Shown here: piece by piece, positions 20,268-42,075 of the stretch
How positions within the stretch are numbered: the stretch's first letter is position 1
Layout: every line of letters starts with the position of its first letter
Assembly: GCA_039919885.1 (NCBI GenBank)
Contig: JBDSEV010000022.1
Coordinates: 43,284 to 107,283, forward strand
DNA: 64,000 bases
DNA from: Chitinophagaceae bacterium
GTDB taxonomy: Bacteria > Bacteroidota > Bacteroidia > Chitinophagales > Chitinophagaceae
Reading direction: 5' to 3'
Made by a program: the position numbers and the translations under genes
Notes under the pieces: generated by a model
Database searches by the model: none
Told to the model about the DNA's origin: nothing
What the model saw: the letters and a program-made list of their open reading frames with translations, nothing else

Positions 20268-22403
20268 CTACTTTATATGAAACAACATGGCCGCGGGCAA
20301 TTCTATTTCTGCTCCGCCTTCCGGTTGCAGCACTACCCTGAGTGAATTTTCTCCGCCGCTGTCGTAATACTGAACAGTAATGGCATGGTATCCTTTCTTT
20401 AAGGCTGCTTTTCCGGGCCCGCCGCCGCTATTGTCATTGCTTGCTATCTCCATTCCATCAATAAACAATTTGCTGCCGTCATCGGAACTAAGCGAAAAAG
20501 TATAGAAACCATCTTTCGCAATTTTAATATACCCATCAAATACAAATGCAAATTTTTCCTTGCGTTGTTTTAATGAAAGCGAAATGACAGTAGCAATGCC
20601 AGTTTTGTTTACCGGCGTACTGGCAATTGACTGAAGGCTTACGCTACCAGTAGGCTCATAATACTTATACGCCAGTCCGGGTGTTAGCAGTGCAGGCGCG
20701 CTGGCTTTCATCCATTGATAACGGATCACTTTCTCTTTAGCAATGCTGCCGGGTAAACCTGTTTCGGGAATACTGACTGCTTGCACAACACTTGTTTTAT
20801 CCAGCAAAATTGGTTTTGTATACAGCGCAGATTGTGCTGTAGGCGATGTACCGTCTGTGGTATAATGGATCTTTTCTGTAGCTGCAGTTTCCATTGACAC
20901 CAGCGGCTGCAGCGGCGTTTTGTAGACTGTTTTTATAGTAGGCTTGGTAGCAAATTTTCCATAGTTGCTTATCTTAATAGCGTACGCATACGGCGCTTTT
21001 ATAGTATTGGGATTGTAGGGCGGCAGGCTGATTACTATGTTTTCTCCTGTTTGTTTCCACTCAAGGTCTGCCTTAGTAGACAAGAAACTGATAGCTGTTC
21101 CCGGGGGCAGCGTAATTGATTTCAAAACCACCTGGTTGTTATCTGGATATCTGGGCAGAATGGCATATAGCGCGTTGGTGGAAGGATTGTAGGTATAAAA
21201 AACTTCTTTTACCGCATACCCCGGATCGGGGTCGATGGTAAGTTTTAGCAACAAGTCACCGCTTCCTGTTGCTGGTTTGTAATCCTGCAGGCCATCGCTC
21301 CATTGCGAAACTTTTTTCCAGCGCACGGTATTATAAATGGCTTCGCCGTTTATCTTCATCCAGTCGCCGATCTGCAGCAACCGCTCCTGCATAATTGGCG
21401 GAATTTTGCCATGTTCATCCGGGCCGATGTCCAGTAAAAAATTACCCCCACTGCTTACTTTGTCGATCAATTGCACTACAAGAGATTGTGATGAATTATA
21501 ATCCCAGGCATCTTCTTCACGGTTATACCCATAGCTGAAACCCATGCCACGGCTTTCTTCCCAATAATGATCTTCAAAATTGAGATTGGGCTGGTATTCG
21601 GGTGTATAAAATCCCGCATGTTTGAAACGTACGCCTGCGCCCCATCGGTCATTTACTACTACCTTATCTTTCACCGGACTTTCATTGTATAACCATGCTA
21701 AAAATTCCTGGCTTTTCCATTTTTCTGCAGGCAGTTCCCATTCGCCATCCGTCCAGAACACATCCGGCTGGTAAGTATTAATGAGGTCTTTCATCTGCGG
21801 CCAGGTGTGCTCCCGTACAAATTTTTCTTTATCCGCTTTCCACAACGGGTTGTACCACTCGTACAGCGAATAATACATACCGGCATGCACCGTTGTTTTT
21901 CTTACTGCCGCAAACAATTCTTTTATTAAATCACGCTTAGGGCCCACGTCTACTGCGTTCCAGGGAAAACCCCATGACTGGTTGGCCTCTTTGCTGGGCC
22001 ATAGCGCAAATCCGTCATGGTGCTTTGACGTTAGTACAATGTATTTAGCACCCGATTGTTCAAACAACTTCGCCCATTCATCGGCGTTAAACAACTCTGC
22101 TTTAAACTGATCTGCCAGCTGGTAATACGTGAGGTTGCTGAATTTCTTTTTATGATACGCCTGGCGCGCGGTATCAGTTCCATTAAGGCCGTTTTGGTAC
22201 CATTCAGCATATTGTCCTTTGCTGCTCCAGGCCGGTACGGAATAAACACCCCAGTGAATAAAAATTCCAAACTTCACATCTTTAAACCATTGCGGCACCG
22301 GCCTTGCATCCAGCGACGACCAGTTGGGTTGATAAGGCTGTGCAGACAGAAAACACAGCAGCAGGCAAAAGGTGTTTAGCAGTAGTAATTTTTTCATATA
22401 CAA
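20268..22403 (-). CDS. Alpha-L-fucosidase (GH29) with a C-terminal PA14 domain
   Basis: The GH29 signature is FGIFIHWGVYSVPAW...KHHDGFALWPS. The C-terminal PA14-like segment is FVFDGYIKIAKDGFYTFSLSSDDGSKLFIDG...GYHAITVQYYDSGGENSLRV. The start may be the MKKLLLL Met at 22397. Confidence 0.88.
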   Translation of the reverse strand: MYMKKLLLLNTFCLLLCFLSAQPYQPNWSSLDARPVPQWFKDVKFGIFIHWGVYSVPAWSSKGQYAEWYQNGLNGTDTARQAYHKKKFSNLTYYQLADQFKAELFNADEWAKLFEQSGAKYIVLTSKHHDGFALWPSKEANQSWGFPWNAVDVGPKRDLIKELFAAVRKTTVHAGMYYSLYEWYNPLWKADKEKFVREHTWPQMKDLINTYQPDVFWTDGEWELPAEKWKSQEFLAWLYNESPVKDKVVVNDRWGAGVRFKHAGFYTPEYQPNLNFEDHYWEESRGMGFSYGYNREEDAWDYNSSQSLVVQLIDKVSSGGNFLLDIGPDEHGKIPPIMQERLLQIGDWMKINGEAIYNTVRWKKVSQWSDGLQDYKPATGSGDLLLKLTIDPDPGYAVKEVFYTYNPSTNALYAILPRYPDNNQVVLKSITLPPGTAISFLSTKADLEWKQTGENIVISLPPYNPNTIKAPYAYAIKISNYGKFATKPTIKTVYKTPLQPLVSMETAATEKIHYTTDGTSPTAQSALYTKPILLDKTSVVQAVSIPETGLPGSIAKEKVIRYQWMKASAPALLTPGLAYKYYEPTGSVSLQSIASTPVNKTGIATVISLSLKQRKEKFAFVFDGYIKIAKDGFYTFSLSSDDGSKLFIDGMEIASNDNSGGGPGKAALKKGYHAITVQYYDSGGENSLRVVLQPEGGAEIELPAAMLFHIK

Positions 22404-22446: not shown

Positions 22447-24045
22447 TTACTTTTTATACTTTGTTACAAAAGTAGTAACACTCATCGGCGCGACCACAAC
22501 ATCACTGGCAGACACCACAGCGTGTTGCATATCCTGTGTAGCATCCGTAGTATAACTATCCAGGCTTTTGCTATTGACGCCCGGCGAAAACTGCAATTGG
22601 AGCTGCTGCCTAATCGCTGAATTATTTGCTACCACCATCACCAGTTCGCTGCTTCCAACATTTTTGTATGCAGAAACCAGGCAATCTGCGGGGCCGGAAA
22701 AAGCGGCGCTTATTCTTTGCATACCGGGCCTGATAAACCTTGAATAGTTACCCATGCACCACAATTGTTTGCTGCTGCTTACCATACCATCTTCTTTTGA
22801 TTTACCCGGATGGATGCTGCCGTCGGGCGCATTGATGTATACCAGTCCGTCACTGTAATTGTATGGATTGATGGCCAGCCACCATTGAAAAGAACTTACA
22901 CCCGCTACCACCAGGTCGGTATGGATCACTTTTGCCACGTAAAGCCCGTAGCGGATATCCGTATTCCGCGGACCGCCATTCAAATTGCCGCAGATATCGC
23001 CTAGCACGCCAAATTCAGATTGCCATAACTGAATGCGGGGATCTACCTGTTTTCTTTTTTCGTTTACTGCGCTGCGTGTGGCCAACAAGACGCTGTCCGG
23101 GCAGGTGCTGAAATAACTGTGGTACGACATCACGGGCGCTGTATTGGGAACCGCACCGATGTAATGACTTGACGCCGGGTTAAAAAAATCATTCAGCTGG
23201 TTGCCGATAAGGGCATTGGAATCCGTAAGGAAATTAACCCGCGCTGCTTCGCCTGCAGTAATCCTGGTGGTTAGTCCGGCTGCCTGCAGTTTTGGTCCCA
23301 GTATTTTTATCAACCGCGCAGTTTGTTCATTGGTGGCGCCAGTACCTTCCTGTGCCGGACGCTCGCCCCATTTCCATTGCGGTTCATTTACCGGGCTTAT
23401 GTAATCGAAAGGAATATTGGTGGCATTAAAATGTTTGCACACTGCCACCAGGAAACTTGCAAACGCCGCATATTTGTCTTCTTTGCAATTAAAATTATTA
23501 TCCGACAAACCATAAGAAAACCCATTTTTTGTAAACCGGACCGGTGGAGAATTGGTAAACGCCAATAGATATTTCACACCCCTTTTTTTTGCAGCGCCTG
23601 CGAACCATTGGGCGCCGCGCTGTTTGCGCCAGTTATAGCTAGCATCGGCACCTAAAAAACATTCTTCGCGCCGGTAGTCATCCGGTATACCGCTTGCAGG
23701 GCCTTGTTCGGCACTTCCTGCACCAATATTAAAACGCCACAAAGACAAACCGATCCCTTTTGGCGATCCATCGGCTAGTTTTTCGGTGCTGAATAACAGA
23801 TCGGCGATTGCATTTTTCTTTTTTTCATCTTTCCAATTGCCAGCAAACTTAGCCGTCCAGCAATCGGATGCGCCAAAACTATGAATGGTCTGGTATGCTT
23901 TGGTGAGATCAATAACGAGCAGGTTTGTGGCGCTACCGGGTTCAATAAGTTTTTTGTCACTGCTGAAGGGCTGCGCACCCGAATTGCGGTGTACAATAGC
24001 AAGCAAAAACAAGAGGCTGGTGAAAGCAATCAGGTATGTCCTCAT
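22447..24045 (-). CDS. Glycoside hydrolase family 30-like (O-glycosyl hydrolase)
   Basis: Start taken at MRTYLIAFTSLLFLLA (24045), not the 24093 extension. It has the GH30-like pattern IHSFGASDCW, SPVNEPQWKW and LWQSEFG, followed by a C-terminal beta-sandwich. The family call rests on motif resemblance only. Confidence 0.65.
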   Translation of the reverse strand: MRTYLIAFTSLLFLLAIVHRNSGAQPFSSDKKLIEPGSATNLLVIDLTKAYQTIHSFGASDCWTAKFAGNWKDEKKKNAIADLLFSTEKLADGSPKGIGLSLWRFNIGAGSAEQGPASGIPDDYRREECFLGADASYNWRKQRGAQWFAGAAKKRGVKYLLAFTNSPPVRFTKNGFSYGLSDNNFNCKEDKYAAFASFLVAVCKHFNATNIPFDYISPVNEPQWKWGERPAQEGTGATNEQTARLIKILGPKLQAAGLTTRITAGEAARVNFLTDSNALIGNQLNDFFNPASSHYIGAVPNTAPVMSYHSYFSTCPDSVLLATRSAVNEKRKQVDPRIQLWQSEFGVLGDICGNLNGGPRNTDIRYGLYVAKVIHTDLVVAGVSSFQWWLAINPYNYSDGLVYINAPDGSIHPGKSKEDGMVSSSKQLWCMGNYSRFIRPGMQRISAAFSGPADCLVSAYKNVGSSELVMVVANNSAIRQQLQLQFSPGVNSKSLDSYTTDATQDMQHAVVSASDVVVAPMSVTTFVTKYKK

Positions 24046-24221
24046 TTCAATAAAATAATCAATGGGGCTTTTTAAATGGGCAATCGTTGACAATTTAGCG
24101 GTATTTTTTATACCTGCCGGATAAGACAGTAAGTTTTATTGTTCCGGCCGCTCAATGGCGCATTTTATTACCTTTATCCCCCGTTCAAAATAACCAGGCA
24201 AATTAAAAATTAAAATTACAT

Positions 24222-25698: not shown

Positions 25699-28305
25699 TT
25701 ACAATTTTTGCAACTTGATTGCCTGGCTGATATTGCTGCCCGCAACCTTCAGGTAATAGATACCTCCTGGCAATTTAGATAGATTTACGTTAATCATATT
25801 CTTGCCCTTTGTTAAAATAACCGTGTGTTGCAAGACTGTTTTTCCTGCCATATCGGTCACCTGCCAGCTGGTCTGCTCACCTACAATCGCATTTACTTCC
25901 ACCGTTGCGTAATCAATTACCGGGTTCGGATGAATGCTGATAGTTCCTTTTTTACTTGCAGGGTATAAAGTTACGGTTGATGAAAGCCTTGATTTGCCAT
26001 CATTGTCGATAACTTTCAAACGGTAATATACTGCTGCGGCCGACAATTTACCGAACGCGCTGTCAGGATATGTATACTGTTGCTGACCTGCCGCAGCGCT
26101 GGCTGCAAGTGTAACCACCGGGTAAAAATCAGTACTGTTAACGCTTCGTTCCAGTGTAAAGTTCTTGGTGCCATGCTCGTCTTCGGTAATCCATTTTAAT
26201 TTGGCGATATCGTTGTTTACAGCGCCATTGAAGGAAATAAGATTTACCGGTAACAATGCGCTTACACTTGCAAAATAAAAAGTAGAGAAACTGGTTACAC
26301 TGGTTTGCAGCACATACCCGCCTGAGCCAAATGCGGCCCGGTTGGTGGTAGGAAGGGCCAACGCTGTTACCGCCATTGCCGACCCGCATACTTCGCTGTT
26401 TTTAAAAATGGCAAGGTTGGAAATGTTCGATACACCGGGGGGATTACCTACCGAATTTACACCATTTTTAAAGGCAGTAAATTCTGCATTGGTGATGTAA
26501 AGACGTACGCCTACAGCAGACCCTGGCTGTGTTTGCGGTGTAATAGTAATATTCCGGTCGAGGTAAAGCGTTTTACTTGAAGCTTTTTCCCGTACAGCAT
26601 TTGAATTGGTGTATACAGAAGTGGTAACGTTACCCAGGTTATTGCCATTGGCAAAAATTTCCGCAACAATATTACCGCTGGTATCGGTAATGGGCACCCA
26701 GAGCGTATCGTTTTTGTTGGTAGCATTAATGGTAACGGTATTCGCGTTCTCACAAAGATTTGCTTTGCCGGTAGCAATTGGCACTGCAGTAGAAATGGTA
26801 CTGGTACCACTTACATTTTTATAACCGAGAAAGGTAAATTTTTGCAAACATCCTCTGCACGCTACAATCATGGGGTTATTGGCACTCGGTCCGGATGTAG
26901 CGGCCGATTTATCCATAATCACATAAATGTCTTTACCTCCGGGGCCAAAAGCCATATCGCGATAACGATTATTACTGTCGAAGTAACAAACCGTATCAGC
27001 TGAACCACTATTCACAATCGATGTTCCCGAAGAATCCAGTTTTGTCCGTATCAGCCTGCCCCATTTAAGCCCGGACATAATCAGAGAATTTTTCCAACCT
27101 GGTATTGCGCTGTAATTATATAAACCCAGACCGGACCAGCCTTCTGATGGCCAGCCTCCATTTCCCGGATTAGTGACCCATATATTATTGATTTCCGATT
27201 TCGGTCTCGCGTAACCACAAAATAAAGGGTCTTTATAACTGGAACCAATAGCCGCAGCATTGGCTGGTTCACTTACAATCAAAGGCACCCCAGACGTAGA
27301 GTAAGCACCTGCACTTGAGCCATTGTAATTGGTATCAGCCGCGAAACCAATAACCAGGGGATGCCCATAATTTCGTTTCCGCTCAATAATATTCACTTCA
27401 TCATCGCTGTAAGGGCCGTGCGAAGACCCATATAAGATATTGCGGACACTGTCGTATGCGAAACCCTGGTTATTCCTTATACCGGTTACCCAAACAGCAC
27501 TTTGCCGAGCGGGTGTTGTGGTATTAAACGGATTGTCATTGGGTATCCATTTATCGTAGGAGCCCGCATCTCCGTCCGGCTCCAGGTTAAACCGTAGAAT
27601 TTTCCCTTCGTAAATAGTTGAATCCTGCGCATGGTTAACACGATACTGGTTTCCAAACTGCCCGGCGCCCATATCACCTTCGGCATAAAAAAGATAGTTA
27701 ACCCCATTTACCGGGGCAATGATCATGCGTTGCGAATTATGATCACTGCTTCCGGGAAGTGTGTCACACAATGACACGGGATTTCCCAAATTGCCGCTTA
27801 TTGGATCATAAGTAAACCTTGCAATACGGTTTTGGTAAAACACGCCCGTATTACCAGCGCCAGTGCTTAAGTAACTGCGGATATAAGAAATGTATACATA
27901 TTTTTTAGCACCCACAGACTTACTAAAATCTGGGTGAATGGCCATACCCGCCAAACCGCCTTGCGGATTAGTTGGCGAAAAAACGAACTGGATATTGAAG
28001 ACAGAGTCGCTCCCAGCGCTGTTGCCAAGCCAGGTACTTTTTAAACTGATATCTAATATTTTTCTTTTGTTGTTCAGAGGGCCATTAGGGCTGATCTTAT
28101 ATACACAATAACCCTTCGATTCTGTAACCCACAACGAATCATCCGGTCCATAAGTAAGCTCCCATGGATCATTTAGAATATTGTCGCCTGATACGTCTGA
28201 TTTAAGAAAGACTTCATTCATGCGCCCGCCAACAATAGTTTGCGTAAAAGACTTAACGGAGAGAATAAAAATAAATAGAACTAGTAGGGTAAAGTACTTC
28301 TTCAT
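25699..28305 (-). CDS. PQQ-dependent sugar (glucose/sorbosone) dehydrogenase-like beta-propeller protein with Fn3-like domain and T9SS C-terminal sorting domain
   Basis: 868-aa ORF with a signal peptide. GSDH-like motifs: PDDSLWVTESKG, GLAGMAIHPDF and RNYGHPLVIG. The C-terminal tail (LKWITEDEHGTKNFTLERSVNSTDF...VYYRLKVIDNDGKSRLS...IHPNPV...IYYLKV) matches the tail shared by the other T9SS cargo genes here. Confidence 0.8.
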   Translation of the reverse strand: MKKYFTLLVLFIFILSVKSFTQTIVGGRMNEVFLKSDVSGDNILNDPWELTYGPDDSLWVTESKGYCVYKISPNGPLNNKRKILDISLKSTWLGNSAGSDSVFNIQFVFSPTNPQGGLAGMAIHPDFSKSVGAKKYVYISYIRSYLSTGAGNTGVFYQNRIARFTYDPISGNLGNPVSLCDTLPGSSDHNSQRMIIAPVNGVNYLFYAEGDMGAGQFGNQYRVNHAQDSTIYEGKILRFNLEPDGDAGSYDKWIPNDNPFNTTTPARQSAVWVTGIRNNQGFAYDSVRNILYGSSHGPYSDDEVNIIERKRNYGHPLVIGFAADTNYNGSSAGAYSTSGVPLIVSEPANAAAIGSSYKDPLFCGYARPKSEINNIWVTNPGNGGWPSEGWSGLGLYNYSAIPGWKNSLIMSGLKWGRLIRTKLDSSGTSIVNSGSADTVCYFDSNNRYRDMAFGPGGKDIYVIMDKSAATSGPSANNPMIVACRGCLQKFTFLGYKNVSGTSTISTAVPIATGKANLCENANTVTINATNKNDTLWVPITDTSGNIVAEIFANGNNLGNVTTSVYTNSNAVREKASSKTLYLDRNITITPQTQPGSAVGVRLYITNAEFTAFKNGVNSVGNPPGVSNISNLAIFKNSEVCGSAMAVTALALPTTNRAAFGSGGYVLQTSVTSFSTFYFASVSALLPVNLISFNGAVNNDIAKLKWITEDEHGTKNFTLERSVNSTDFYPVVTLAASAAAGQQQYTYPDSAFGKLSAAAVYYRLKVIDNDGKSRLSSTVTLYPASKKGTISIHPNPVIDYATVEVNAIVGEQTSWQVTDMAGKTVLQHTVILTKGKNMINVNLSKLPGGIYYLKVAGSNISQAIKLQKL

Positions 28306-28555: not shown

Positions 28556-28671
28556 CCCCAGTATCAGTATAAGTATTTTCTATTATTTCAAATAGCGATT
28601 ATAACTATAACACTATAATATAAGTGCTTTTTGTTTTCGGTGTGTTATCGTTCAATCAAGACCCAATATCT

Positions 28672-31600
28672 ATGAAAACATTTTTACCCGCTGCAATTCG
28701 TTGCAGTTTATTTTTGATGATTGTTTTCTTATTAGGAAAACCATCATTAGCGCAAACCGATGCATGTACCAGCCCTCCTTTACTTGTTTCATCCTACGCT
28801 GGCTGTAGTTCTACCGTCGGCACACTGCCCGGCGGAGCATCTTATACTGCTGGGTCAATCTCTTCCATAGGTTGCGGTACAGCATCACGAAATGACGTGT
28901 GGTATACTTTTGTTGCTAACTCAGCTACTCCAACAGTTACATTAACTACGGCTATGGCCAACCCGAGATTGCAACTTTTTTCCGGCAGTTGTGGCTCCCT
29001 CGTAAATGTGATGTGTGGCACTACTGGCGGATCACCTGTTACGATGGCTGCTGCGGGATTAACTGTTGGCACGACCTACTATATCAGAATTTACACGACT
29101 TTAAATGCAAGCGGAAATTTTAATATTTGTATTACAGACCCAACACCACCGGCAAATGATAATTGCGCCGGCGCTGTTAATTTAAATTCCAATAATTCCT
29201 GCAGTAATACCCCAGGAACACTTCTATATTCAACCCCCAGTTCCACAACCGCTTCCTGTGGAACAGCTTCCTCGGGAGATGTTTGGTATAAGTATAACGC
29301 AACTACCGCTTATCCAACCATAACATTGGATATTAACAATACGAATACCACTATTAAAGCAGCGACCGCTGTTTTGGAAATATACTCCGGCGCTTCTTGT
29401 GCCGGGTTAACATCAATTGGTTGCTGGAAAGGAGGCCCCGGGCTTGGTAATTTTTCGGCGAGTCCGGTACTCACCGTGGGCGCCACTTATTACATCCGGG
29501 TATATACAAATACTAATACAGGCAGCTATATTGGATCGGGTAACTGGGCTTTTAATATATGTATCGTCAATCCTTCCGCGTCCAACCCCACGGTGTTCTA
29601 CGGAAAAAGTTATGTAAACATTACGAAAGGTAGTGGCGGCGGTACGGTTGAACCCGGTGACGAACTGGAAATAAGGGGAACCTTTGCTGTTTCTGCAAAC
29701 GCAGCTTACTTCTGCGCTTTTTCAGATAATGTGCCTGCCAATACTACTTATGTACCAAACACCCTGCGGGTACTTACCAATGAAGGAAAAATATACCAGC
29801 AATTTACGGACGCGGCTGCGGATGACGCAGGCACCATTGCACTCGGCGCTGTAACTATTAATTTAGGAAGCGGGGCGACCGCGGCTAGCGGCGGTGCGGT
29901 AAGATTTACCAACCGGCCATCTAACTTCGGCACCACCTGTATTATGGTGGCCTCCTACCGGGTAATTGTAAACGCAGTTTCGCTGGGTACAATCGTTAAT
30001 ATGGGCGGCGGCACCATTGCTTATAGGAACCAGCCGTTGACGCCAGTCAATACCATTACCTTCCCGGCATACAATGCGGTTGTTTATAAAAATTTTGGCA
30101 TTTGTGCAAACACCATTGGCTCCAATGGGGTACTTTCAGAATTTAGCGGAACCTTTGGTTCTGGCAATATGAAAGACCGCGCTGCATCCAGCAAAATTCC
30201 CGCAAATTATACGTACGCGCAGTTTTCTAACGGCAACCCAGGTGACAATTTCTATGGCCTGTCAAATAACTCCAGCTCTGGCGGTGTCAATTATTCAATT
30301 AATCCCAATGAACCCGTTGCAGTGAAACATGTATTTAATGTGTGGGACATCATAGGAGATCATACTGGAGCCACCAATCCATTAGCAGGTAATCCTCCGG
30401 CGGACACAACGGGCGGCAAAACAGGTGGGTACATGGTTGTAATCAATGCAGCCTTTAGAACCGATACTGCGTTTCTCGATACAGTAAAAAACCTGTGTCC
30501 GAACACGTACTATGAATATTCTGCATGGTTCCGTAATATATGCCGTACCTGCGGTGCAGATTCTATCGGCGTGAGCTCTTCCAGCCTGGGATATATTCCA
30601 ACCGGTCCCGGAGATTCAAGTGGAGTGCACCCAAACCTGACATTTAATATTAACGGAAAAGACTATTATACTACGGGCGACATTTTATACAATGGCCAAT
30701 GGATAAAAAAAGGGTTTACGTATCTCACCGGCCCCGCTGAAACCCAAATGATAATTAATATACGCAACAATGCACCCGGTGGTGGGGGCAACGACTGGGC
30801 GGTAGACGACATTGGCGTGGCAACTTGCACGCCCAACCTGGTGATGAACCCAGCGACACCAACCGTAAATGTCTGCTATGGCGATGGCACCTCACTGTCT
30901 GCTGATGTTACCAGCTACTTTAACAATTACACACAATATATCTGGGAAAAAAGTACAGATAACGGCGTGAACTGGTTATCCACCGGCTACAGCGGTACCG
31001 GATCTCCGTTAACCAACGGAACAGAATTTGTGTACACCGCAGTAGGCCCTTCTTTTATCGGCGATTCATCTACGCATAATAACATTTTCCGTTTACGTGT
31101 GGCAAGCACCTCCATTAATCTGGCAGACCCCAGCTGTTCATTTTCAGGCATTAGAACTGTAAAGGTGTATGTAAGCAATTGTATGTGGTTGTTAAAAGCC
31201 AACTTTGTAAACTTCTCCGGCAGCCTGCGCAGTAATCTCGCCGGCCTTCAATGGAAGATGGTAAATGAAAACGGAAAAGAAAGCTATGAAATTGAAAAAA
31301 GTACCGATGGTACCCACTTTACTATCGCTGGCAAACTAAGGTCCACTTCGCCCGATGGAAGCGGCAACTATACATTTGACGATCCTGCGGCGCTGAACGC
31401 CATAACCTATTACCGTATTAAGCTGCTGGAAGAATCAGGATTTAAATATAGTAAAACGGTTATGCTGGCACCTGGTAAAATACCATTTGACGTAAAAGGC
31501 CTGGTGAATCCATTCTCGTCGCATATACAATTTGATGTAATAGTACCCGGTACCGGAGCAATAAAATCTACATTGTTTGATAATTATGGTAAAGTAGTTA

Positions 31601-31743
31601 AAACCCATACCGAACAGGCAGAAAAAGGGGTACATGCAATAAAAATTGCCAACATCAGTAATTTAACCAGTGGCATGTACACATTAAAAGTTCAATGGCA
31701 AAACGAAACGCTTACGAAAAGAATTATTAAAATAACTGAATAG
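28672..31743 (+). CDS. Giant T9SS cargo protein, paralog 1. Order of parts: signal peptide, 2 PPC-like Cys-rich repeats, DUF11-like Ig domain, unassigned GDHTG/GGGGNDWA core, Ig-like domain, Fn3-like YYRIK domain, T9SS CTD.
   Basis: Start taken at the ATG MKTFLPAAIRCSLFLMIVFLLGKPSLAQ; the ORF track starts 48 nt earlier at a GTG. It is collinear with the next three genes, and the motifs are listed in the findings. The C-terminus LVNPFSSHIQFDV...GMYTLKVQWQNETLTKRIIK is a type-A T9SS sorting domain. Confidence 0.88.
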   Translation: MKTFLPAAIRCSLFLMIVFLLGKPSLAQTDACTSPPLLVSSYAGCSSTVGTLPGGASYTAGSISSIGCGTASRNDVWYTFVANSATPTVTLTTAMANPRLQLFSGSCGSLVNVMCGTTGGSPVTMAAAGLTVGTTYYIRIYTTLNASGNFNICITDPTPPANDNCAGAVNLNSNNSCSNTPGTLLYSTPSSTTASCGTASSGDVWYKYNATTAYPTITLDINNTNTTIKAATAVLEIYSGASCAGLTSIGCWKGGPGLGNFSASPVLTVGATYYIRVYTNTNTGSYIGSGNWAFNICIVNPSASNPTVFYGKSYVNITKGSGGGTVEPGDELEIRGTFAVSANAAYFCAFSDNVPANTTYVPNTLRVLTNEGKIYQQFTDAAADDAGTIALGAVTINLGSGATAASGGAVRFTNRPSNFGTTCIMVASYRVIVNAVSLGTIVNMGGGTIAYRNQPLTPVNTITFPAYNAVVYKNFGICANTIGSNGVLSEFSGTFGSGNMKDRAASSKIPANYTYAQFSNGNPGDNFYGLSNNSSSGGVNYSINPNEPVAVKHVFNVWDIIGDHTGATNPLAGNPPADTTGGKTGGYMVVINAAFRTDTAFLDTVKNLCPNTYYEYSAWFRNICRTCGADSIGVSSSSLGYIPTGPGDSSGVHPNLTFNINGKDYYTTGDILYNGQWIKKGFTYLTGPAETQMIINIRNNAPGGGGNDWAVDDIGVATCTPNLVMNPATPTVNVCYGDGTSLSADVTSYFNNYTQYIWEKSTDNGVNWLSTGYSGTGSPLTNGTEFVYTAVGPSFIGDSSTHNNIFRLRVASTSINLADPSCSFSGIRTVKVYVSNCMWLLKANFVNFSGSLRSNLAGLQWKMVNENGKESYEIEKSTDGTHFTIAGKLRSTSPDGSGNYTFDDPAALNAITYYRIKLLEESGFKYSKTVMLAPGKIPFDVKGLVNPFSSHIQFDVIVPGTGAIKSTLFDNYGKVVKTHTEQAEKGVHAIKIANISNLTSGMYTLKVQWQNETLTKRIIKITE
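28753..29568 (+). repeat. Two tandem in-frame PPC-like Cys-rich domain repeats inside paralog 1
   Basis: Each unit has the form [N]D.C..A......C....GTL....(C)GT....DVWY.[FY]......P[TS][IV]TL......[RV][LI][QE][LI][FY]SG[SA]C..L....C......L..G.TYYIR[IV]YT....G.[FW].F.ICI. The boundary between units is at 29139/29140. Confidence 0.8.
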
Positions 31744-32063: not shown

Positions 32064-32176
32064 CGGAATGTACATCTAGATGCTATAGCCTATACTAAGA
32101 AATTTTATACATAGTAATTGCTAAGTGTTTGTACGTCTGTAGCCATTTTTTTATTAGTCGGGTAAGATCTCAATCT

Positions 32177-35100
32177 ATGAAAACGTTTATATCTGCTTCC
32201 TTTCGTCGTGTAAAGACGCTTTTTGTTTTAATGGTTATTGTACTTGCGGGGTATCAATCTTTTGCCCAGGCGCCTGCCAATGACCTTTGCATAAATGCAT
32301 CGCCGCTAACGGCTGCGGTTACCTGTAACGCTGTGGCCGGCACATTAAGTGATGCTACCGTTTCGATACCCACCCTAACTGGTTGTGGCACCACAGGTGC
32401 AGATGTTTGGTATACTTTTGTTGCGCAATCCGCGTATCCCAATATTACATTGAGCAATCCGGGCGCTAGTCTAACTGGTACCAATGCGCGTATTCAACTT
32501 TTTTCTGGAAGCTGCGCGAGCCTTACCCAGCTGGGTTGTATCAGCGGAACTTTTTTAAGTACCGCCAGCGTTTATCCCGCAGGCCTTATCACCGGCAATA
32601 CTTACTATATAAGAATATATTCGGCCACTGTTGCACCCACTGGTGGTGCTGCATGGGATTTTTCTATTTGTGTTACGGATCCGCCCGCAAACGATCTTTG
32701 CAGCAATGCTTTGTTATTAGCATCTGCTACTTCCTGCACGCCAACCGCAGGCACTTTAAACAATGCGGCAGTATCAATACCCGCAATTGCCGGGTGTGGC
32801 ACAACGGGCGGCGATGTGTGGTACACGTTTGTTGCACAGTCTGTTTATCCCTCTATAACATTAGGCAGCCTTGGATCAAGTCTTGCCGGTACCAATGCAC
32901 GTATACAATTACTTTCAGGTGCGTGCGGAAGCTTAACAGCACTGGGTTGTGTCTCAAACAGCGTCTTCAATACTGCCGCGGCGTATCCAACCGGGCTAAC
33001 GCCAGGTAATACCTATTATATAAGAATTTACTCAAACACACTGGCGCCAACAAGTGCTGCCACTGCGTGGGATTTCTCTATTTGCATAACAGATCCACCA
33101 ATAAATGATCTCTGTACCAATGCTACAGCACTTGTATCAGCTAATACCTGTTCTGCCGTACCGGGTACACTGAATTATGCAGCCGTTTCTGTACCAACTA
33201 TTGCTACTACCTGCGGAACTGCTGGCGCGGATGCCTGGTATACTTTTGTTGCACAGTCAGTATATCCATCCATTACTTTAAGCAACCTTGGATCAAGCCT
33301 GACGGGAACCAATGCCCGCATACAATTGTTTTCGGGCACCTGTGGCACATTGAGTTCACTGGCCTGCGTGGCCACCAGTACGTTTAATACCGCCGCTGCT
33401 TACCCCGCTGGCTTAACACCGGGCGATACCTATTATATCAGGATATATTCAAATGCTGCGGCGCCGGCAAGTGCCACCACTGCATGGGATTTTTCCATCT
33501 GTGTTACGGACCCTCCCACAAATGACCTTTGTACGGACGCCACTGTACTGGTATCAAACAATATTTGCAGCAATACTTCCGGTACCCTTAACAGTGCAGC
33601 AGTATCCGTCCCAGCTATTACCACCACCTGCGGAACTGCCGGCGGAGATGTATGGTATTCTTTTGTGGCGCAATCTGCCTACCCAACCATTACGCTCAGC
33701 AGTATGGGAATAAATATCAATGGCAACGCCAGGATACAAATATTTTCTGGCAGCTGCGCCAGTATGACTTCACTCGCCTGCGTATCAGCGGCCAGCTTTA
33801 ATACTTCAATCAGTTACCCCGCAGGGTTAACACCGGGCAATACTTATTTCGTAAGAATTTATTCCAATACACTTGCGCCGGCAAGCGTCACCGGTGGCTG
33901 GGATTTTTCCATTTGTATAACGGATCCACCGGTAAATGATAATTGTGCGAATGCAATCGCATTAACATCCGCCAGTGTGTGCAGCAATATTGCCGGCACC
34001 ATGGGTAGTGCTACTTATTTTGCTTCGGGTGCTGTGGCTTGTTCGGGCACCGACAGGTATGACGTTTGGTACACATTTATCGCGCAAAGAACAAACCCTA
34101 CCATTACTATCAGCAGTGCAGGTGCAGGGTTTAACACGCCAAGAATACAGGTGCTGTCTGGTACCTGCGGCAGTTTTATTTCTACCGGTTGCAATGGCAG
34201 TACTTATACACCCACCGGGTTAACCATTGGTGCAACTTACTATGTGAGGGTTTATTCTACCAACAACCCCATACCCAACATAAATGCAGATTTTAATATT
34301 TGTATAACGGACCCCGCATTGCCTGCGAATGATGATTGTGCAGGCGCCACGGTGATAACTTCAGCACCAGCCTGCTCCAGCACTGCCGGAACCTTGTTAA
34401 ATGCTACGGCCACCACCGGTGTGCCTGGTAATTGCGGCGACGCCAATTCACCAGATGTATGGTATAGCTTTGTGGCCAACACGCCTTTTCCTTCCATTAC
34501 GCTCGGAAGTTTGGGCGCACAGTTTGCTGCTGCCGGGCCAAGGGTTCAAATTTTGTCTGGCACTTGCGGAAGCTTCACCTCCCTGGCATGTACAAACACT
34601 ACTTCTTTCAACACATTTCTGCCAAGCGGACGAACAGGTCTTACTATCGGTAACACGTATTATATCCGTGTTTACACCAATACAGCTATAATGAGCGGTG
34701 CCAACTGGAATTTTAATATTTGTGTGACCGAACCCGCTGCACCCGCTATAGATTATGGGAGGAGTTATGTAAATATAACCAAGGGATCAAACGGTGGTAC
34801 CATTGAACCAGGAGATGAGCTGGAGATGCGGGCAACCATGTCCGTGAGATCCAACTCGGCTTATGGCGTATCCTTTACGGGTGCTATTCCGGCCAATACA
34901 ACTTATGTACCCGGCACGCTCCGGATACTCACCAACGAAGGAAAAATTTATAAACAATGGACGGACGCCGCAGACGGCGATCCCGCTACCATATCAGGTT
35001 CAGCAATTACTGTGAACCTTGGATCTTCGGCCGATCAATTACTCGGTGGTGTTATGAAGAGTAGTGACAGACCTGTGGCAGGTAGTACCTGTCTTAATAT

Positions 35101-36907
35101 TGTCTCCTTCCGTGTAATTGTTAATGCCATTGCTTTTGGCACCCCGTTAAGCGTTGGTGGCGGAAATATTTCCTACTATAATCCATCCAGTGCTACCGGT
35201 CCCATTAATATTACTTTCCCGGATGTTACGGCCATCGTTTATAAAAACTATGGCATCTGCACCAATACCATCGGCAGTAACGGTATATTGTCTGAATATG
35301 GTGGCACATTTGGATCAGGTACACAGAAGGACCGCGATTCATCACTGAACATACCAACCAATTATCAATACAAAGTGTTTACCTCTGGTGCCCCGGGCGA
35401 TTACTTCTATGGAATGTCTAATAACACCAGCACAGGTACAGGGCCAGCCAACTATTCCATCGACCCTAACGATCCCGTAGCAGCGCATCGTGTGTTTGCG
35501 GTGTGGGATATCATTGGCGACCATACAGGTGCAGCGAACCCCCTGGCAGGAAATTTACCGACAGATGTAAACAATGGTTTCAGTGGTGGTTACATGGCGG
35601 TTATCAATGCATCTTACCGGACCGATACTGCTTTCCTTGATACGGTAAGAAATTTGTGTCCCAATACTTCTTACGAGTATTCCGCATGGTTCAGGAATAT
35701 TTGCCGGAGGTGTGGCGTAGACTCAGTGGGCACACAGGCTTTAAATCCTGGTTACCTGCCAACCGGCCCGGGCGATTCATCGGGTGTACATCCCAACCTT
35801 ACTTTTAATATTAACGGCTTTGATTATTATACAACCGGAGACATGGGTTATACGGGCCAATGGGTAAAAAAAGGATTTACCTATCGCACCGGCCCATCAG
35901 AAACCCAGATGATCATTAATATACGCAATAACGCACCCGGTGGTGGCGGTAACGACTGGGCAATTGATGACATCGGCGTGGCATCGTGCACACCTATACT
36001 GGAAGTTAACCCGGCAGATCCCTTACTAAAAGTATGCTACGCGGATGGCGCATCTATTTCAGCCAAAGTGAAAAGCTATTTCGATAACTATACTTACTAT
36101 ATATGGGAAAAAAGTACGGATGGTGGGGTTAGTTTTACCTCCACAGCCTACACCAGCGCCGGCACCATAGCACCGGTATTCAACGGATCTGAATATGAAT
36201 ACACGGCCACCGGCCCGTCGTTCATCGGTGATTCTACCACCCACAACAATGTTTTCAGGCTGCGGGTAGCCAGCTCAGCAGGCAACCTGGCTGATCCCTC
36301 CTGCTCTTTCATTGCAGCCAGAACAGTAAAGGTGTATGTTAATAATTGTATGTGGTTGTTGAAAACAGATTTCGTGAATACGACGGGATCAATCCATAAT
36401 AACCTTTCCGAAATTCAATGGACCACGGTAAACGGAAATGGCAAAGAATATTATGAGGTAGAAAAAAGCACAGATGGCAGCTCCTTTACCAAAATTGGCA
36501 AAGTAAATTCCCATGTGCTTACCGGCAACAGCGTGTATCATTTTACTGACCCAACTGCTATTGCCGGCATGCAGTATTACCGCATTAAATTAGTAGAAGA
36601 AAATGGTTTTAAGTATAGCAAAACAATTTTGCTGAATACGGGCAAGGCCAATTTTTCCGTACAAAACCTGGTGAACCCATTTGCAAATACCATCTCCTGC
36701 AACGTTGTATTACCGGCAGACGGAGATGTACGCACCACCATTTTTGATATGTATGGAAGGGCGGTAAAAACATACCGGCAGTCTACGATAGCTGGTGTTA
36801 GCCCGCTTCAGATCCGTGACCTTGGGTCGCTGAGCGCAGGTACCTACTTTTTAAAAATAGAATGGCAAAATGAAAGCATTATCAAAAAGGTGATTAAATC
36901 TAAGTAA
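32177..36907 (+). CDS. Giant T9SS cargo protein, paralog 2. It has six PPC-like repeats, then the same DUF11-like, core, Ig-like, Fn3-like and CTD architecture.
   Basis: Start taken at the ATG MKTFISASFRRVKTLFVLMVIVLAGYQSFAQ, giving 1576 aa. Downstream of the repeats it aligns with paralog 1 along the whole length, for example VWDIIGDHTGAANPLAGN, LCPNTSYEYSAWFRNICRRCGVDS, IRNNAPGGGGNDWAIDDIGVASC and YYRIKLVEENGFKYSKTILL. Confidence 0.9.
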   Translation: MKTFISASFRRVKTLFVLMVIVLAGYQSFAQAPANDLCINASPLTAAVTCNAVAGTLSDATVSIPTLTGCGTTGADVWYTFVAQSAYPNITLSNPGASLTGTNARIQLFSGSCASLTQLGCISGTFLSTASVYPAGLITGNTYYIRIYSATVAPTGGAAWDFSICVTDPPANDLCSNALLLASATSCTPTAGTLNNAAVSIPAIAGCGTTGGDVWYTFVAQSVYPSITLGSLGSSLAGTNARIQLLSGACGSLTALGCVSNSVFNTAAAYPTGLTPGNTYYIRIYSNTLAPTSAATAWDFSICITDPPINDLCTNATALVSANTCSAVPGTLNYAAVSVPTIATTCGTAGADAWYTFVAQSVYPSITLSNLGSSLTGTNARIQLFSGTCGTLSSLACVATSTFNTAAAYPAGLTPGDTYYIRIYSNAAAPASATTAWDFSICVTDPPTNDLCTDATVLVSNNICSNTSGTLNSAAVSVPAITTTCGTAGGDVWYSFVAQSAYPTITLSSMGININGNARIQIFSGSCASMTSLACVSAASFNTSISYPAGLTPGNTYFVRIYSNTLAPASVTGGWDFSICITDPPVNDNCANAIALTSASVCSNIAGTMGSATYFASGAVACSGTDRYDVWYTFIAQRTNPTITISSAGAGFNTPRIQVLSGTCGSFISTGCNGSTYTPTGLTIGATYYVRVYSTNNPIPNINADFNICITDPALPANDDCAGATVITSAPACSSTAGTLLNATATTGVPGNCGDANSPDVWYSFVANTPFPSITLGSLGAQFAAAGPRVQILSGTCGSFTSLACTNTTSFNTFLPSGRTGLTIGNTYYIRVYTNTAIMSGANWNFNICVTEPAAPAIDYGRSYVNITKGSNGGTIEPGDELEMRATMSVRSNSAYGVSFTGAIPANTTYVPGTLRILTNEGKIYKQWTDAADGDPATISGSAITVNLGSSADQLLGGVMKSSDRPVAGSTCLNIVSFRVIVNAIAFGTPLSVGGGNISYYNPSSATGPINITFPDVTAIVYKNYGICTNTIGSNGILSEYGGTFGSGTQKDRDSSLNIPTNYQYKVFTSGAPGDYFYGMSNNTSTGTGPANYSIDPNDPVAAHRVFAVWDIIGDHTGAANPLAGNLPTDVNNGFSGGYMAVINASYRTDTAFLDTVRNLCPNTSYEYSAWFRNICRRCGVDSVGTQALNPGYLPTGPGDSSGVHPNLTFNINGFDYYTTGDMGYTGQWVKKGFTYRTGPSETQMIINIRNNAPGGGGNDWAIDDIGVASCTPILEVNPADPLLKVCYADGASISAKVKSYFDNYTYYIWEKSTDGGVSFTSTAYTSAGTIAPVFNGSEYEYTATGPSFIGDSTTHNNVFRLRVASSAGNLADPSCSFIAARTVKVYVNNCMWLLKTDFVNTTGSIHNNLSEIQWTTVNGNGKEYYEVEKSTDGSSFTKIGKVNSHVLTGNSVYHFTDPTAIAGMQYYRIKLVEENGFKYSKTILLNTGKANFSVQNLVNPFANTISCNVVLPADGDVRTTIFDMYGRAVKTYRQSTIAGVSPLQIRDLGSLSAGTYFLKIEWQNESIIKKVIKSK
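32270..34732 (+). repeat. Six tandem in-frame copies of the PPC-like Cys-rich domain (411, 414, 417, 414, 387 and 420 bp)
   Basis: Unit boundaries read directly from the sequence: 32270, 32681, 33095, 33512, 33926, 34313, with the array ending at 34732. Each unit starts P[PA].ND.C and ends [WF][DN]F[SN]IC[VI]T[DE]. Units 1-4 are the most similar to each other and also show DNA-level similarity. Confidence 0.9.
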
Positions 36908-37078: not shown

Positions 37079-39412
37079 ATGAAAAATATTGTAACCCTTA
37101 CCGGGAAACTATACAGCTGCGCAGCAGTGTTTATGCTCCTTTTTTTAAGCCAGCAATATGGCCACGCACAAGCGTCCGCCAAAATAAAATTCAGCAACAG
37201 TTATGTAAATATTACCCGTAATACCCTCGGTGGTACGGTTGAATCCGGTGATATCCTGGAAATCCGCACTACATTATATGTGAACAGCACGTACAACACA
37301 ACGGGAATGATCTACTACCTCCGCTATGTCGATAACCTGCCGTCCAATACCGCCATATCAGCCGCAAGCACCCTCAACCTCATTACCAATGAAGGTGTTG
37401 CCCTTAAAACATATACGCAAGCACCCGATGCGGATGCCGGAACGTACCTTGCTACGCCATCTGTTGGGGAATTCCAGGTTAAAGTTAATATGGGTGGTTT
37501 CCCTTTTAGCGCGGATCCATCTGCGCCGGCAGACAACTCACCAACCGATGTAACGGGTTCGGGAAATCTGAGGGGCAACGTAAACAAGCCAAAATTTGGT
37601 GGCGGCACCCTGGTGTCCACGGCGTTCCGTGTGCAGGTAACCGGTAGTACCGGCGATATCATCACACTTGGCAGCGGGCATTTACTATTTAAGAAAACAA
37701 ACGTGCCAGGCGACCCCGATACTTCCATCAACACCATTCCTTATCAAATTTTAATTTCCGCCAACGAAAGCCTCTGCTCCAATACGGTAGGAACCAATTT
37801 TGCCGATGAGTTTGCCGGGAGTTTTGGCAGTGGCAATTCCCTGAACAGATCAACAGGACCCAGTTTTGCTTTGCCTGGTTATACTTACATTCCAAATGTG
37901 AGCCTGTACCCAAGTGTGGGCATAAACGATGGTTATTATGCAGTAGTAAATAATTCCAGTCCAAAATCGGCCACGGATCCAAATGCGCGACGCCAACCTA
38001 ATTGCGCACTACCAGCAGGTCCTATTGCACCCAATGACTCGTGTGCAGGAAGAATGTTTGGCGGTTTTTGGTTCATCAGTGGCGACCATACAGGAACCAT
38101 GGATGCTATTGGTAACCCACCACCAGGGCCAGGCGCCACCGGTGGCTATATGCTGGCTGTAAATGCTGACATTGCTACCACGGAAGCCTATAAGCAAACC
38201 ATCTCTGGCCTGTGCCCCGATACCTACTATGAGTTTTCAGCGTGGGTTAAAAATATCTGCCCGCTCTGTGGTCTTGATTCATCGGGTAGCCAGACCTACA
38301 AACCCGGTGTATTACCCAATCTTACTTTTGTGGTTGACGGTGTTGACCGCTATTCATCCGGTGAAATTGACACGCTTGGCTGGTTGAAAAAAGGCTTCCT
38401 TTTTAGGACCAATAGTGGCCAGACATCCATCGTAATTTCTATACGCGACAATGCACCCGGTGGTGGTGGAAACGACTGGGTACTGGATGATATTACACTG
38501 GCTACCTGCAGCCCAAACCTGGCCATGTTGCCATCGCCCATAGCACCAGTTTGTTATGGTAACACGGTTGATATCTCCTGCGATGTAACCAGCTATTTTT
38601 CAAATTATACGCATTGGGAATATGAAAAAAGTACGGATTCAGGCGTTACCTGGGTCACAACAGGCGTTAGTGGGGTGGGTGTACCGGTCCTTACGGCCGG
38701 ACAATACCAGTACAATGCAGCATACCCAACATTTGTTGGAGACAGCAGCGTACACAAGAATGTATACCGCATCAGGATTGCCTCTTCTGCGGCAAACCTG
38801 GCAGATCCTAACTGTTCTTTCCTTGCTACCACTACCATTGTAATAAAGGTTAACAATTGCCAATGGGTATTGAAGACAGATATTACAGCTATTTCCGGAC
38901 AACTCAAAGACAATGCCGCTACCGTTCGCTGGTCAATAGCAGACGAAGCGCCGGGTGTTGAATATGCGGTGGAAAAAAGCACCGATAAAATTAATTACAA
39001 ACCTGTTGAAAAAGTGGCCGCAAAAATGCAACAGGCGGCAAACTATGTGTATAACGATCCCGAAATATTAACGGCTCCTGCGTATTATCGTATTAAAATA
39101 ATTGACAAGGATAAATTTAAATTTAGCAAAACAATCCTGCTGAGTCCTTCGGGATTGTCATTGGGAATAAAATCGATCACCAACCCGTTTGTACAAACCC
39201 TCGCTTTTGATGTGCTGGCACCTTCAGCGGGCATGGCCGGCGTACTGGTGATTGATAACTACGGTAAAACAATATACCAGCGGAAGGAGCTGGTCAGCAC
39301 AGGAATTAATCCTGTAAAAATTTATCTGCCCGCACTCAGCAATGGCATTTATACTTTGCGTATAGAATTCAATAATACCGTTATTAATAAAAGGGTCATT
39401 AAAGCAAACTAA
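37079..39412 (+). CDS. T9SS cargo protein, paralog 3. It has no PPC-like repeats; otherwise DUF11-like domain, core, Ig-like domain, Fn3-like domain and CTD.
   Basis: 777-aa ORF with a signal peptide (…LLFLSQQYGHAQA). It is the most divergent member but keeps SYVNITRNTLGGTVESGDILEIR, FWFISGDHTGT, GGYMLAVNA, LCPDTYYEFSAWVKNICPLCGLDS, IRDNAPGGGGNDWVLDDITLATC and YYRIKIIDKDKFKFSKTILL. Confidence 0.88.
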   Translation: MKNIVTLTGKLYSCAAVFMLLFLSQQYGHAQASAKIKFSNSYVNITRNTLGGTVESGDILEIRTTLYVNSTYNTTGMIYYLRYVDNLPSNTAISAASTLNLITNEGVALKTYTQAPDADAGTYLATPSVGEFQVKVNMGGFPFSADPSAPADNSPTDVTGSGNLRGNVNKPKFGGGTLVSTAFRVQVTGSTGDIITLGSGHLLFKKTNVPGDPDTSINTIPYQILISANESLCSNTVGTNFADEFAGSFGSGNSLNRSTGPSFALPGYTYIPNVSLYPSVGINDGYYAVVNNSSPKSATDPNARRQPNCALPAGPIAPNDSCAGRMFGGFWFISGDHTGTMDAIGNPPPGPGATGGYMLAVNADIATTEAYKQTISGLCPDTYYEFSAWVKNICPLCGLDSSGSQTYKPGVLPNLTFVVDGVDRYSSGEIDTLGWLKKGFLFRTNSGQTSIVISIRDNAPGGGGNDWVLDDITLATCSPNLAMLPSPIAPVCYGNTVDISCDVTSYFSNYTHWEYEKSTDSGVTWVTTGVSGVGVPVLTAGQYQYNAAYPTFVGDSSVHKNVYRIRIASSAANLADPNCSFLATTTIVIKVNNCQWVLKTDITAISGQLKDNAATVRWSIADEAPGVEYAVEKSTDKINYKPVEKVAAKMQQAANYVYNDPEILTAPAYYRIKIIDKDKFKFSKTILLSPSGLSLGIKSITNPFVQTLAFDVLAPSAGMAGVLVIDNYGKTIYQRKELVSTGINPVKIYLPALSNGIYTLRIEFNNTVINKRVIKAN

Positions 39413-42047: not shown

Positions 42048-42075
42048 AAAACCCCGCCTGTAGAGGTGGGGTTTT
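42048..42075 (+). terminator. Rho-independent terminator closing the paralog array
   Basis: The sequence is aaaa-ccccgcc-tgtaga-ggtgggg-tttt: a 7-bp stem with one G-U pair and a 6-nt loop, where the A and T flanks can extend the stem. Confidence 0.65.

Follow-up and report, generated by a model that had tools for sequence, protein, structure and literature searches.

What is the conserved segment that recurs in four neighbouring genes of a Chitinophagaceae bacterium, and what might it bind? The genes, P1-P4, follow one another on the + strand of a 64,000-nucleotide stretch of contig JBDSEV010000022.1 (assembly GCA_039919885.1), hereafter the window, and have in common a module of about 250 aa. 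[quoted passage not shown] The four genes are as follows.

28624-31743, + strand: P1 gene (open reading frame from GTG 28624; likely ATG start 28672, opening the signal peptide MKTF...; 1039 aa)
32129-36907, + strand: P2 gene (open reading frame from TTG 32129; likely ATG start 32177; 1592 aa)
37079-39412, + strand: P3 gene (777 aa; without N-terminal GBD_T9SS_assoc repeats)
39633-41903, + strand: P4 gene (756 aa)

These consecutive open reading frames form a tandem array of paralogs. Their shared cores align over about 720 aa with 41-63% identity to P1, a similarity far beyond chance. With the limits set at the first and the last conserved Cys, the modules and their main motifs lie at the following positions.

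30085-30828, + strand: P1 module (aa 488-735)
30148-30165, 30355-30369, 30424-30450 and 30493-30507, + strand: P1 motifs GTFGSG, GDHTG, GGYMVVINA and LCPNT
30535-30627 and 30769-30813, + strand: P1 NIC..CG loop insertion and NAPGGGGNDWAVDDI
35240-35989, + strand: P2 module (aa 1038-1287), with GDHTG at 35516-35530 and GGYMAVINA at 35585-35611
35696-35788 and 35930-35974, + strand: P2 NIC..CG loop and NAPGGGGNDWAIDDI
37757-38509, + strand: P3 module (aa 227-477), with GDHTG at 38081-38095 and GGYMLAVNA at 38141-38167
38252-38311 and 38450-38494, + strand: P3 NIC..CG loop, the shortest of the four, and NAPGGGGNDWVLDDI
40227-40988, + strand: P4 module (aa 199-452; Cys-rich loop aa 354-385)

From P1 to P4, GDHTG starts at nt 30355, 35516, 38081 and 40512, and NAPGGGGNDW at nt 30769, 35930, 38450 and 40929. 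The intervals given in a preliminary description of the window agree with these Cys-to-Cys spans, being about 15 nt off at most. Its six motif blocks were recovered exactly by a regular-expression test in 23 of the 24 instances across the four paralogs; the remaining one, block 4 of P2 (NLTFNINGFDYYTTGDM), ends in M and not in I. The module is also, as claimed there, the most conserved part of the proteins: in a sliding 40-column window the fraction of invariant columns was 0.40-0.55 at P1 nt ~30340-30880 versus 0.05-0.3 elsewhere. The LCP...NIC..CG block, for which four conserved Cys had been given, contains three; the whole module has five, located in the N-terminal G[IL]C, in LCP, in NIC, in the following xxC and in the terminal A[TS]C.

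The family is large: an exhaustive HMMER search of 1.84 billion cluster representatives (clusters at 50% identity) returned 864 clusters at E<=1e-3, of which 105 reached E<=1e-30. Where they are named, the members are annotated as "hypothetical protein" or "T9SS type A sorting domain-containing protein", and the named source organisms are Chitinophagaceae, Ferruginibacter, Puia, Ginsengibacter, Phnomibacter, Pedobacter and Saprospiraceae. As far as the source names show, the family is confined to T9SS cargo of Bacteroidota (Chitinophagaceae, Saprospiraceae, Sphingobacteriaceae), with type A or type B (CHU_C) sorting domains. Distant members are compact (~200 aa), occur in 2-3 copies per protein alongside SprB repeats and type B (CHU_C) sorting domains, and do not have the two insertions of the window clade, namely about 20 aa between DHT and GGYM and a loop of 20-32 aa starting with NIC..CG.DS. 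The conservation counts given below refer to 123 domains of this family. In the literature on T9SS cargo we found no specific description of the module. One distant relative from this search, P0244 (1368 aa), matched the module query only in the loop segment (query residues 193-240), nine times with a period of 89 residues; either a module fragment may have given rise to a repeat protein here, or the match may be a low-complexity coincidence.

The fold was approached by AlphaFold2 modelling. The model of the module (P4 aa 175-466) had a pLDDT of 74 and a pTM of 0.74, and a Foldseek comparison with the PDB gave 64 matches at E<=1e-3, the top 50 of which were all CBM-type or galactose-binding-domain (GBD)-type domains. 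The matches with E-values from 1e-5 to 5e-4 included the Stig cyclases HpiC1 and FamC1 (1e-5), CBM4-2, CBM16 and CBM22 (5e-5 to 5e-4) and EclA-C, the CBM22-like Ca2+-dependent fucose lectin domain of Enterobacter cloacae EclA (PDB 6YF6). A porphyran CBM was matched as well. The highest target-normalised TM-score, 0.59, was obtained with EclA-C. Models and matches are thus in line with the β-sandwich or jelly-roll fold of CBM- or lectin-like character anticipated in the preliminary description. Based on the modelled fold and on the sequence profiles described below, the module can be assigned to the galactose-binding-domain-like jelly-roll superfamily (Pfam clan GBD), and is an unannotated branch of this known sugar-binding-type β-sandwich superfamily.

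The best Foldseek E-values belong to the Stig cyclases, and this raises the question of whether the module is an enzyme on a CBM-like scaffold, like these Ca2+-dependent cyclases, with an active site composed of N-terminal polar residues (N-R, P-x-D-x-Y, NN-S, R-x-F, W-D, D-H-T). The Pfam HpiC1-like model comes close to its cut-off on one relative and scores lower on the compact consensus (see below), and close homologs do carry many near-invariant polar residues in loop regions. The TM-scores of the cyclases are modest, being 0.31-0.34 when query-normalised and 0.42-0.47 when target-normalised. Moreover, the His of DHT is replaced in 17 of the 123 domains (by N in 12, and by Q or other residues), being retained in 106, and at several N-terminal polar positions conservation is restricted to the Chitinophagaceae-type clade. 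The occurrence of 2-3 tandem copies in some proteins, with adhesin-type repeats alongside, is typical of binding modules, and no biosynthetic or catabolic partner genes are conserved beside the module. An enzymatic role is therefore improbable.

Sequence profiles pointed to the lectin domain. When the trimmed, diverse alignment A4 (33 family sequences) was used as a profile against the PDB, 6yf6 was matched at E 2e-4, and hhalign of A4 against four EclA-C orthologs gave a probability of 92.5% (E 4.8e-7, 96 columns). The four orthologs were recovered from genome contigs, since a search of a 5.8-billion-protein set with an EclA-C fragment gave only a fragment of 65 aa. In the HMMER alignment, SMGND of EclA lies over GGxGND of the family and R-I-I-G-K-Y-E over N-I-C-x-x-C-G. 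It should be noted that neither phmmer with P4 nor the close-homolog profile produced any match among the PDB sequences. A different candidate, homology of NNAPGGGGND to the Ca2+/galactose loop NDVPGTYGNN of LecA (PA-IL), was rejected: hhalign against aligned LecA, PllA and EclA-N sequences gave 0.5%. The LecA family serves here as a negative control, the domain of EclA matched in 6yf6 being its other, non-LecA domain.

Curated models gave the following scores on the module.

Pfam CBM_4_9 (PF02018), on the family consensus: 22.2 bits, E 1.9e-4 (cut-off 25.9, not reached)
Pfam HpiC1-like (PF22825), on P0238: 26.2 bits (cut-off 27); on the compact consensus: 19.7 bits
Pfam MAM (PF00629), on P0249: 19.8 bits, E 7.6e-4; on the consensus: 16.6 bits (gathering threshold 26.4, not reached)
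Pfam CBM_4_9_1 and CBM_6, on distant members: sub-threshold

Among the close homologs, 2 of 36 reach E 0.044 with CBM_4_9. When Pfam and NCBIfam were run on P1-P4, only the GBD_T9SS_assoc repeats and the C-terminal sorting domain (CTD) were matched, and the module remained unmatched at threshold. The sub-threshold Pfam matches are limited to CBM_4_9, CBM_6, CBM_4_9_1, MAM, HpiC1-like and F5_F8_type_C, which are presumably all members of the GBD clan. The module had previously been described as belonging to no characterised family that could be named. This holds insofar as no curated model reaches threshold, but the profiles link it to EclA-C and CBM22-like lectins, CBM_4_9, HpiC1-like and MAM, and the description comes near to being overturned because these families already explain most of the motifs.

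In EclA-C, fucose is bound via Ca2+ held by I180, T181, S269, G271 and D273; D273 and the backbone NH of G271 also hydrogen-bond the sugar, whose methyl group sits in a pocket made up of I215, K217 and Y218 (PMC11875179). The published numbering fits the chain (S269-M270-G271-N272-D273-F274-R275 and I214-I215-G216-K217-Y218). The S-x-G-x-D loop of EclA, which precedes the last strand, aligns with G-G-x-G-N-D of the family, with G and D identical and Ser replaced by Gly. It is possible that Gly at this position takes part through backbone or water-mediated ligation. Residues I180 and T181 lie 5-6 residues outside the alignment; ungapped extrapolation places them on M-L-V-V-N-A, beside a near-invariant Asn. 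Both motifs are well conserved in the family, G-N-D being found in 121-122 and the Asn of VNA in 120 of the 123 domains.

A second set of Ca2+ ligands is known from MAM domains. The MAM domain of NRP1 binds a stabilising Ca2+ through E651, D685 and D796 and through the backbone O of N691, and these ligands are conserved in meprin and RPTPmu (PMC5104691). By counting along the verified NRP1 sequence, the ligands were assigned to motifs and then, by motif order, to those of the family as follows.

NRP1 E651 (with F652): in C-E-F-G-W-G, corresponding to (T/D/S/N)-F-G-x-G of the family
NRP1 D685: in D-H-T, corresponding to G-D-H-T-G of the family
NRP1 N691 (with F692): in G-N-F, corresponding to G-G-Y-M of the family
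NRP1 D796: first D of D-D-I, corresponding to D-D-I of the family

The MAM-type positions of the family follow the NRP1 motif order and are conserved in 119-123 of the 123 domains, the stretch covered by hhalign being only that from DHT to DDI. The Asp of DHT is present in 119 domains, the first D of DDI in all 123 and the Phe of xFGxG in 119, and the residue preceding this Phe, invariant or nearly so, is always T, D, S, N or E. What had been described as invariant Asp and His residues and an acidic cluster is thus best read as a predicted MAM-type structural Ca2+ site, and the GGxGND loop as a predicted solvent-facing Ca2+/sugar site of the EclA type. The earlier idea that a Gly-rich loop and an acidic cluster form a Ca2+ or ligand site is consistent with these alignments to S269, G271 and D273 of EclA-C and to D796 of the NRP1 MAM domain. 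The idea that the His and Asp residues mark a catalytic centre is not supported: the His is replaceable, as stated above, and the Asp of DHT matches, by motif order, a structural Ca2+ ligand of MAM. In P4, the two predicted sites comprise the following residues.

Structural Ca2+ site: T221/F222 (GTFG), D295 (DHT), G318/Y319 (GGY) and D445 (DDI)
Ligand Ca2+ loop: G437-G439-D441 (GGGGND), near N324 (VNA)

The same residues raise another possibility, that of a MAM-like adhesion or oligomerisation module in which Ca2+ is purely structural and which makes protein-protein contacts (self-association, cell adhesion or gliding-related adhesion) without binding sugar. Apart from the four conserved NRP1 ligand positions, the order xFGxG, DHT, G-aromatic, Cys-x-aromatic strand and G..A.DDI...C is that of MAM, and hhalign of trimmed, diverse family alignments against a small MAM alignment gave 76%, rising to 83% for the compact subfamily, with an aligned stretch from DHT to DDI. 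(The value of 0.5% obtained with the untrimmed close-homolog alignment A2 was discarded as an artefact, since A2 contained 644 match columns from long flanking sequence.) The Pfam MAM model also reaches E 7.6e-4 on P0249, and relatives bear SprB repeats and CHU_C domains, as is typical for gliding adhesins. Furthermore, the top Foldseek match of the full-length P4 model is the MAM-Ig-FN3 (immunoglobulin, fibronectin type III) ectodomain of RPTPmu (E 1e-11), with a domain order identical to that of P4 (module-Ig-FN3), although the Ig and FN3 domains may account for part of this multi-domain match. However, the Pfam MAM score always stays below the gathering score, and P1-P4 give no MAM match even at E<=1. 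The best profile match is the lectin domain EclA-C and not MAM, and the near-invariant GGxGND loop is foreign to MAM and aligns with sugar and Ca2+ ligands. We consider a purely adhesive module unlikely, while granting it serious weight.

The conserved cysteines allow one more interpretation. The two Cys of NIC..C are both present in 95 and both absent in 26 of the 123 domains, with 2 exceptions, and are invariant in P1-P4. On this ground the CxxC, together with the Cys of LCP, could be regarded as a redox-active or metal-binding (e.g. Zn/Cu) functional core, in keeping with the earlier suggestion of a catalytic or metal centre. Nevertheless, the 26 domains without CxxC retain every other core motif, and the pair occurs only together with the loop insertion, whose base it flanks and which is clade-specific and variable in length. 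In 21 domains the LCP Cys occurs although CxxC is missing, and in at least 6 the reverse holds. In the model of the module, the insertion beyond the two Cys has low confidence, the pLDDT falling below 50 roughly 10 residues past the CxxC (model residues 189-191 and 194-208). The C-terminal Cys is missing in three domains, all of which are also without the N-terminal Cys. MAM domains have four conserved Cys that form two intradomain disulfides. In the module, conserved Cys stand at its start, within the LCP strand and behind the last strand; the co-absence suggests a link between the N-terminal and the C-terminal Cys, and the LCP Cys is dispensable. Because of this pattern of co-occurrence, in an exported protein, predicted structural disulfides are the simplest reading: one closing the base of the loop and one stapling the N-terminus to the C-terminus would fit the data, and a functional redox or metal core is highly improbable.

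Based on the above results, we infer metal binding, sugar binding, disulfides and a ligand specificity for the module, and suggest the following scheme for a Ca2+-dependent carbohydrate-binding domain. Sec export would be followed by periplasmic folding with disulfide formation, and the CTD would direct export by the T9SS. At the cell surface or in the medium, the jelly roll would be rigidified by a structural Ca2+ (site 1) held, as in the NRP1 MAM domain, by the residue before Phe of (T/D/S/N)-F-G-x-G, the Asp of GDHTG, the G-G-Y backbone and the first Asp of DDI. A second, surface-located Ca2+ (site 2), modelled on S269-M-G271-N-D273 plus I180/T181 of EclA-C, would be coordinated by the P-G-G-x-G-N-D loop, with the end of the V-N-A strand probably contributing, and would bind the cis-diol of a sugar. 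Specificity would be shaped by the NIC..CG.DS...GV.P loop (20-32 aa) and by the GNPP loop between DHT and GGYM; such a role is plausible since the NIC..CG loop aligns with the specificity loop of EclA (I214-Y218). On this scheme, P1-P4 would bind glycans at the cell surface or as secreted proteins, having diversified in their loops and in the number of extra N-terminal GBD repeats. The paralogs differ most in the clade-specific Cys-rich and GNPP loops and in the number of these repeats, which is consistent with diversified binding.

Several points weigh against this scheme. The EclA-C match is limited to the C-terminal ~100 residues of the module, and the proposed equivalence of I180/T181 to V-N-A is extrapolated from outside the aligned region. 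Model confidence is lower in the N-terminal half of the module (pLDDT 48-83), and in the window proteins the module scores below threshold with every curated Pfam and NCBIfam model. MAM domains that have these structural motifs serve in protein-protein contacts and not in sugar binding, and the Stig cyclases with their best Foldseek E-values are enzymes. In addition, the module is fused to no carbohydrate-active enzyme and the flanking genes are not kept in the related genome described below, so that the context gives no hint of the ligand. It is also conceivable, if quite improbable, that the additions of the Chitinophagaceae type (the GNPP loop, the NIC..CG.DS...GY.PT.PGDSSGV loop and the N-terminal polar residues) have made the module a Ca2+-dependent enzyme or a redox-gated lectin in which the CxxC switches surface ligand binding.

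The export of the proteins is indicated at both ends. The N-termini of P1-P4 are all hydrophobic, resemble signal peptides and end in AQ, and all four C-termini correspond to a T9SS type A sorting domain (Por_Secre_tail PF18962 / TIGR04183):

31507-31728, + strand: P1 T9SS type A CTD (Pfam/NCBIfam)
36674-36895, + strand: P2 T9SS type A CTD (Pfam/NCBIfam)
39182-39400, + strand: P3 T9SS type A CTD (sub-cut-off: Pfam 20.7 vs 27; TIGR04183 22.6 vs 23)
41667-41888, + strand: P4 T9SS type A CTD (Pfam/NCBIfam)

TIGR04183 gave 32.4, 33.1 and 30.8 bits for P1, P2 and P4 (cut-off 23), and P3 remained marginally under the cut-off. With both a predicted signal peptide and a sorting domain, P1-P4 have the make-up of T9SS type A cargo. 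In P1 the domain order is two GBD_T9SS_assoc repeats, an N-terminal β-sandwich, the module, an Ig-like domain, an FN3-like domain and the T9SS CTD; in P2, six such repeats precede the same core architecture. The GBD_T9SS_assoc (PF23759) repeats are tandem units of about 130 aa with the pattern PANDxC...CGT.G.DVWY.F...YP.ITL...ARIQL.SG.CG...C...GNTYYIRIY, located at 28750-29580 in P1 (2) and 32260-34740 in P2 (6) and absent from P3 and P4, and their number is the main length difference among the paralogs. The AlphaFold2 model of mature full-length P4 (pLDDT 87, pTM 0.74) shows five β domains: the N-terminal sandwich, the module, the Ig-like domain, the FN3-like domain and the CTD.

The domains next to the module are likewise conserved and unannotated. 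The one directly upstream (29584-30080, 34739-35240, 37166-37750 and 39711-40220; pattern YGKSYVNITKG..GGT.EPGD.L.I...) is a confidently modelled β-sandwich (pLDDT >90); it had no Pfam match, and only a weak match to the DUF11-type repeat TIGR01451 was found in P2 (E 0.009). On the 3' side (P1 30880-31500 and equivalents) follow two β domains, the Ig-like one with the pattern VCYG...SYF.NY...WEKS.D.G..W and the FN3-like one with EKSTD....YYRIK..E..GF.YSK.

The array ends with a strong terminator-like hairpin:

42048-42075, + strand: hairpin with a 12-bp stem followed by a T run, 3' of P4, the last paralog

The genes near the array encode a GSDH-type T9SS protein, a fumarase, GH30, a GH29 fucosidase with PA14, a lipoprotein signal peptidase and MurF-Alr; the flanking genes lie on other strands or are housekeeping genes. 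A related metagenome contig (L005; ENA ERZ25039594 contig_15598) retains tandem P2-, P3- and P4-like genes at 1110-11314. The P2-like gene is split into 1486+269 aa and the P4-like gene into 123+437 aa, while the P3-like protein has 779 aa, and these splits resemble assembly frameshifts. With P4, the 437-aa piece shares 91% identity across the match to the module query (half of the query covered). The genes downstream in L005 (YkuD_2, DXP synthase) are unlike those of the window, and it is the array that is the conserved unit and not its neighbourhood, because it is kept beside other downstream genes.

The following further features of the window were noted.

20268-22403 and 22447-24093, both - strand: GH29 α-L-fucosidase with C-terminal PA14, adjoining a GH30 glycosidase
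2076-5087, + strand: SdrD_B-repeat protein, T9SS type A cargo
25699-28305, - strand: glucose/sorbosone dehydrogenase-like protein, T9SS type A cargo
10885-12288, 13472-14977 and 15014-17779, all - strand: PSCyt1/PSCyt2/PSD1 (DUF1549/DUF1553) protein paired with a DUF1501 protein, plus another PSCyt1 protein
17956-20145, - strand: long open reading frame of 729 aa without a Pfam family at E<=1e-3
42322-43677, - strand: long open reading frame of 451 aa without a Pfam family at E<=1e-3

The fucosidase is of interest because the module's closest solved relative, EclA-C, is a fucose binder. Both glycosidase genes lie on the strand opposite to the array, are separated from it by the fumarase gene and another gene, and are not kept beside it in L005. 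With its further cargo genes, the region around the array is rich in T9SS substrates. The PSCyt1/PSCyt2/PSD1 and DUF1501 gene pair is best known from Planctomycetes and occurs here in a window of the Bacteroidota type.

The module reveals no new kind of biology or system. Its interest lies in annotation: as no curated model covers the family, the labels of thousands of surface proteins go no further than "hypothetical" or "T9SS sorting domain-containing". Treating the module as a GBD-clan domain with two predicted elements, a structural Ca2+ site of the MAM type and a ligand Ca2+ loop of the EclA type, would provide a handle for annotation and residues to mutate. It also suggests a possible sequence bridge between metazoan MAM domains and bacterial CBM and lectin domains.

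Compared with known systems, the module is closest in Foldseek E-value to the HpiC1-like Stig cyclases, Ca2+-binding CBM-like jelly rolls as the module itself is predicted to be; these are cyanobacterial biosynthetic enzymes, whereas the module has no biosynthetic context. CBM_4_9/CBM4-2, CBM16 and CBM22 share its fold, with all Pfam matches below the gathering score, but the CBM4, CBM16 and CBM22 families do not have the DHT and GGxGND motifs, and no glycoside hydrolase is joined to the module. MAM domains (PF00629; NRP1 5L73, RPTPmu 2C9A/2V5Y, meprin) show the same motif order, with E-F-G, D-H-T, G-N-F and D-D-I at the corresponding positions, and a C-terminal Cys after the last strand; in RPTPmu, MAM likewise precedes Ig and FN3. 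Unlike the module, which is bacterial (Bacteroidota), MAM domains are metazoan, have a different Cys pattern and span about 160 aa; the module, at 200-260 aa, contains in addition a P-x-D-G-x-Y-x-I-x-N hairpin, the GGxGND loop and clade-specific insertions. EclA-C is likewise a jelly roll, is the best sequence-profile match and has its terminal strand after the GND loop, as in the module. It consists of 144 aa and is without the Cys-rich loop, DHT and DDI (having IKELKI), all three of which the module possesses; moreover, its fusion partner, in an enterobacterial lectin expressed in the cytosol, is a LecA domain, whereas the module is carried by T9SS cargo. Judging from the aligned ligand residues, the module would work most like Ca2+-dependent lectin domains of the EclA-C/CBM22 type, with structural Ca2+ motifs that it appears to have in common with MAM.

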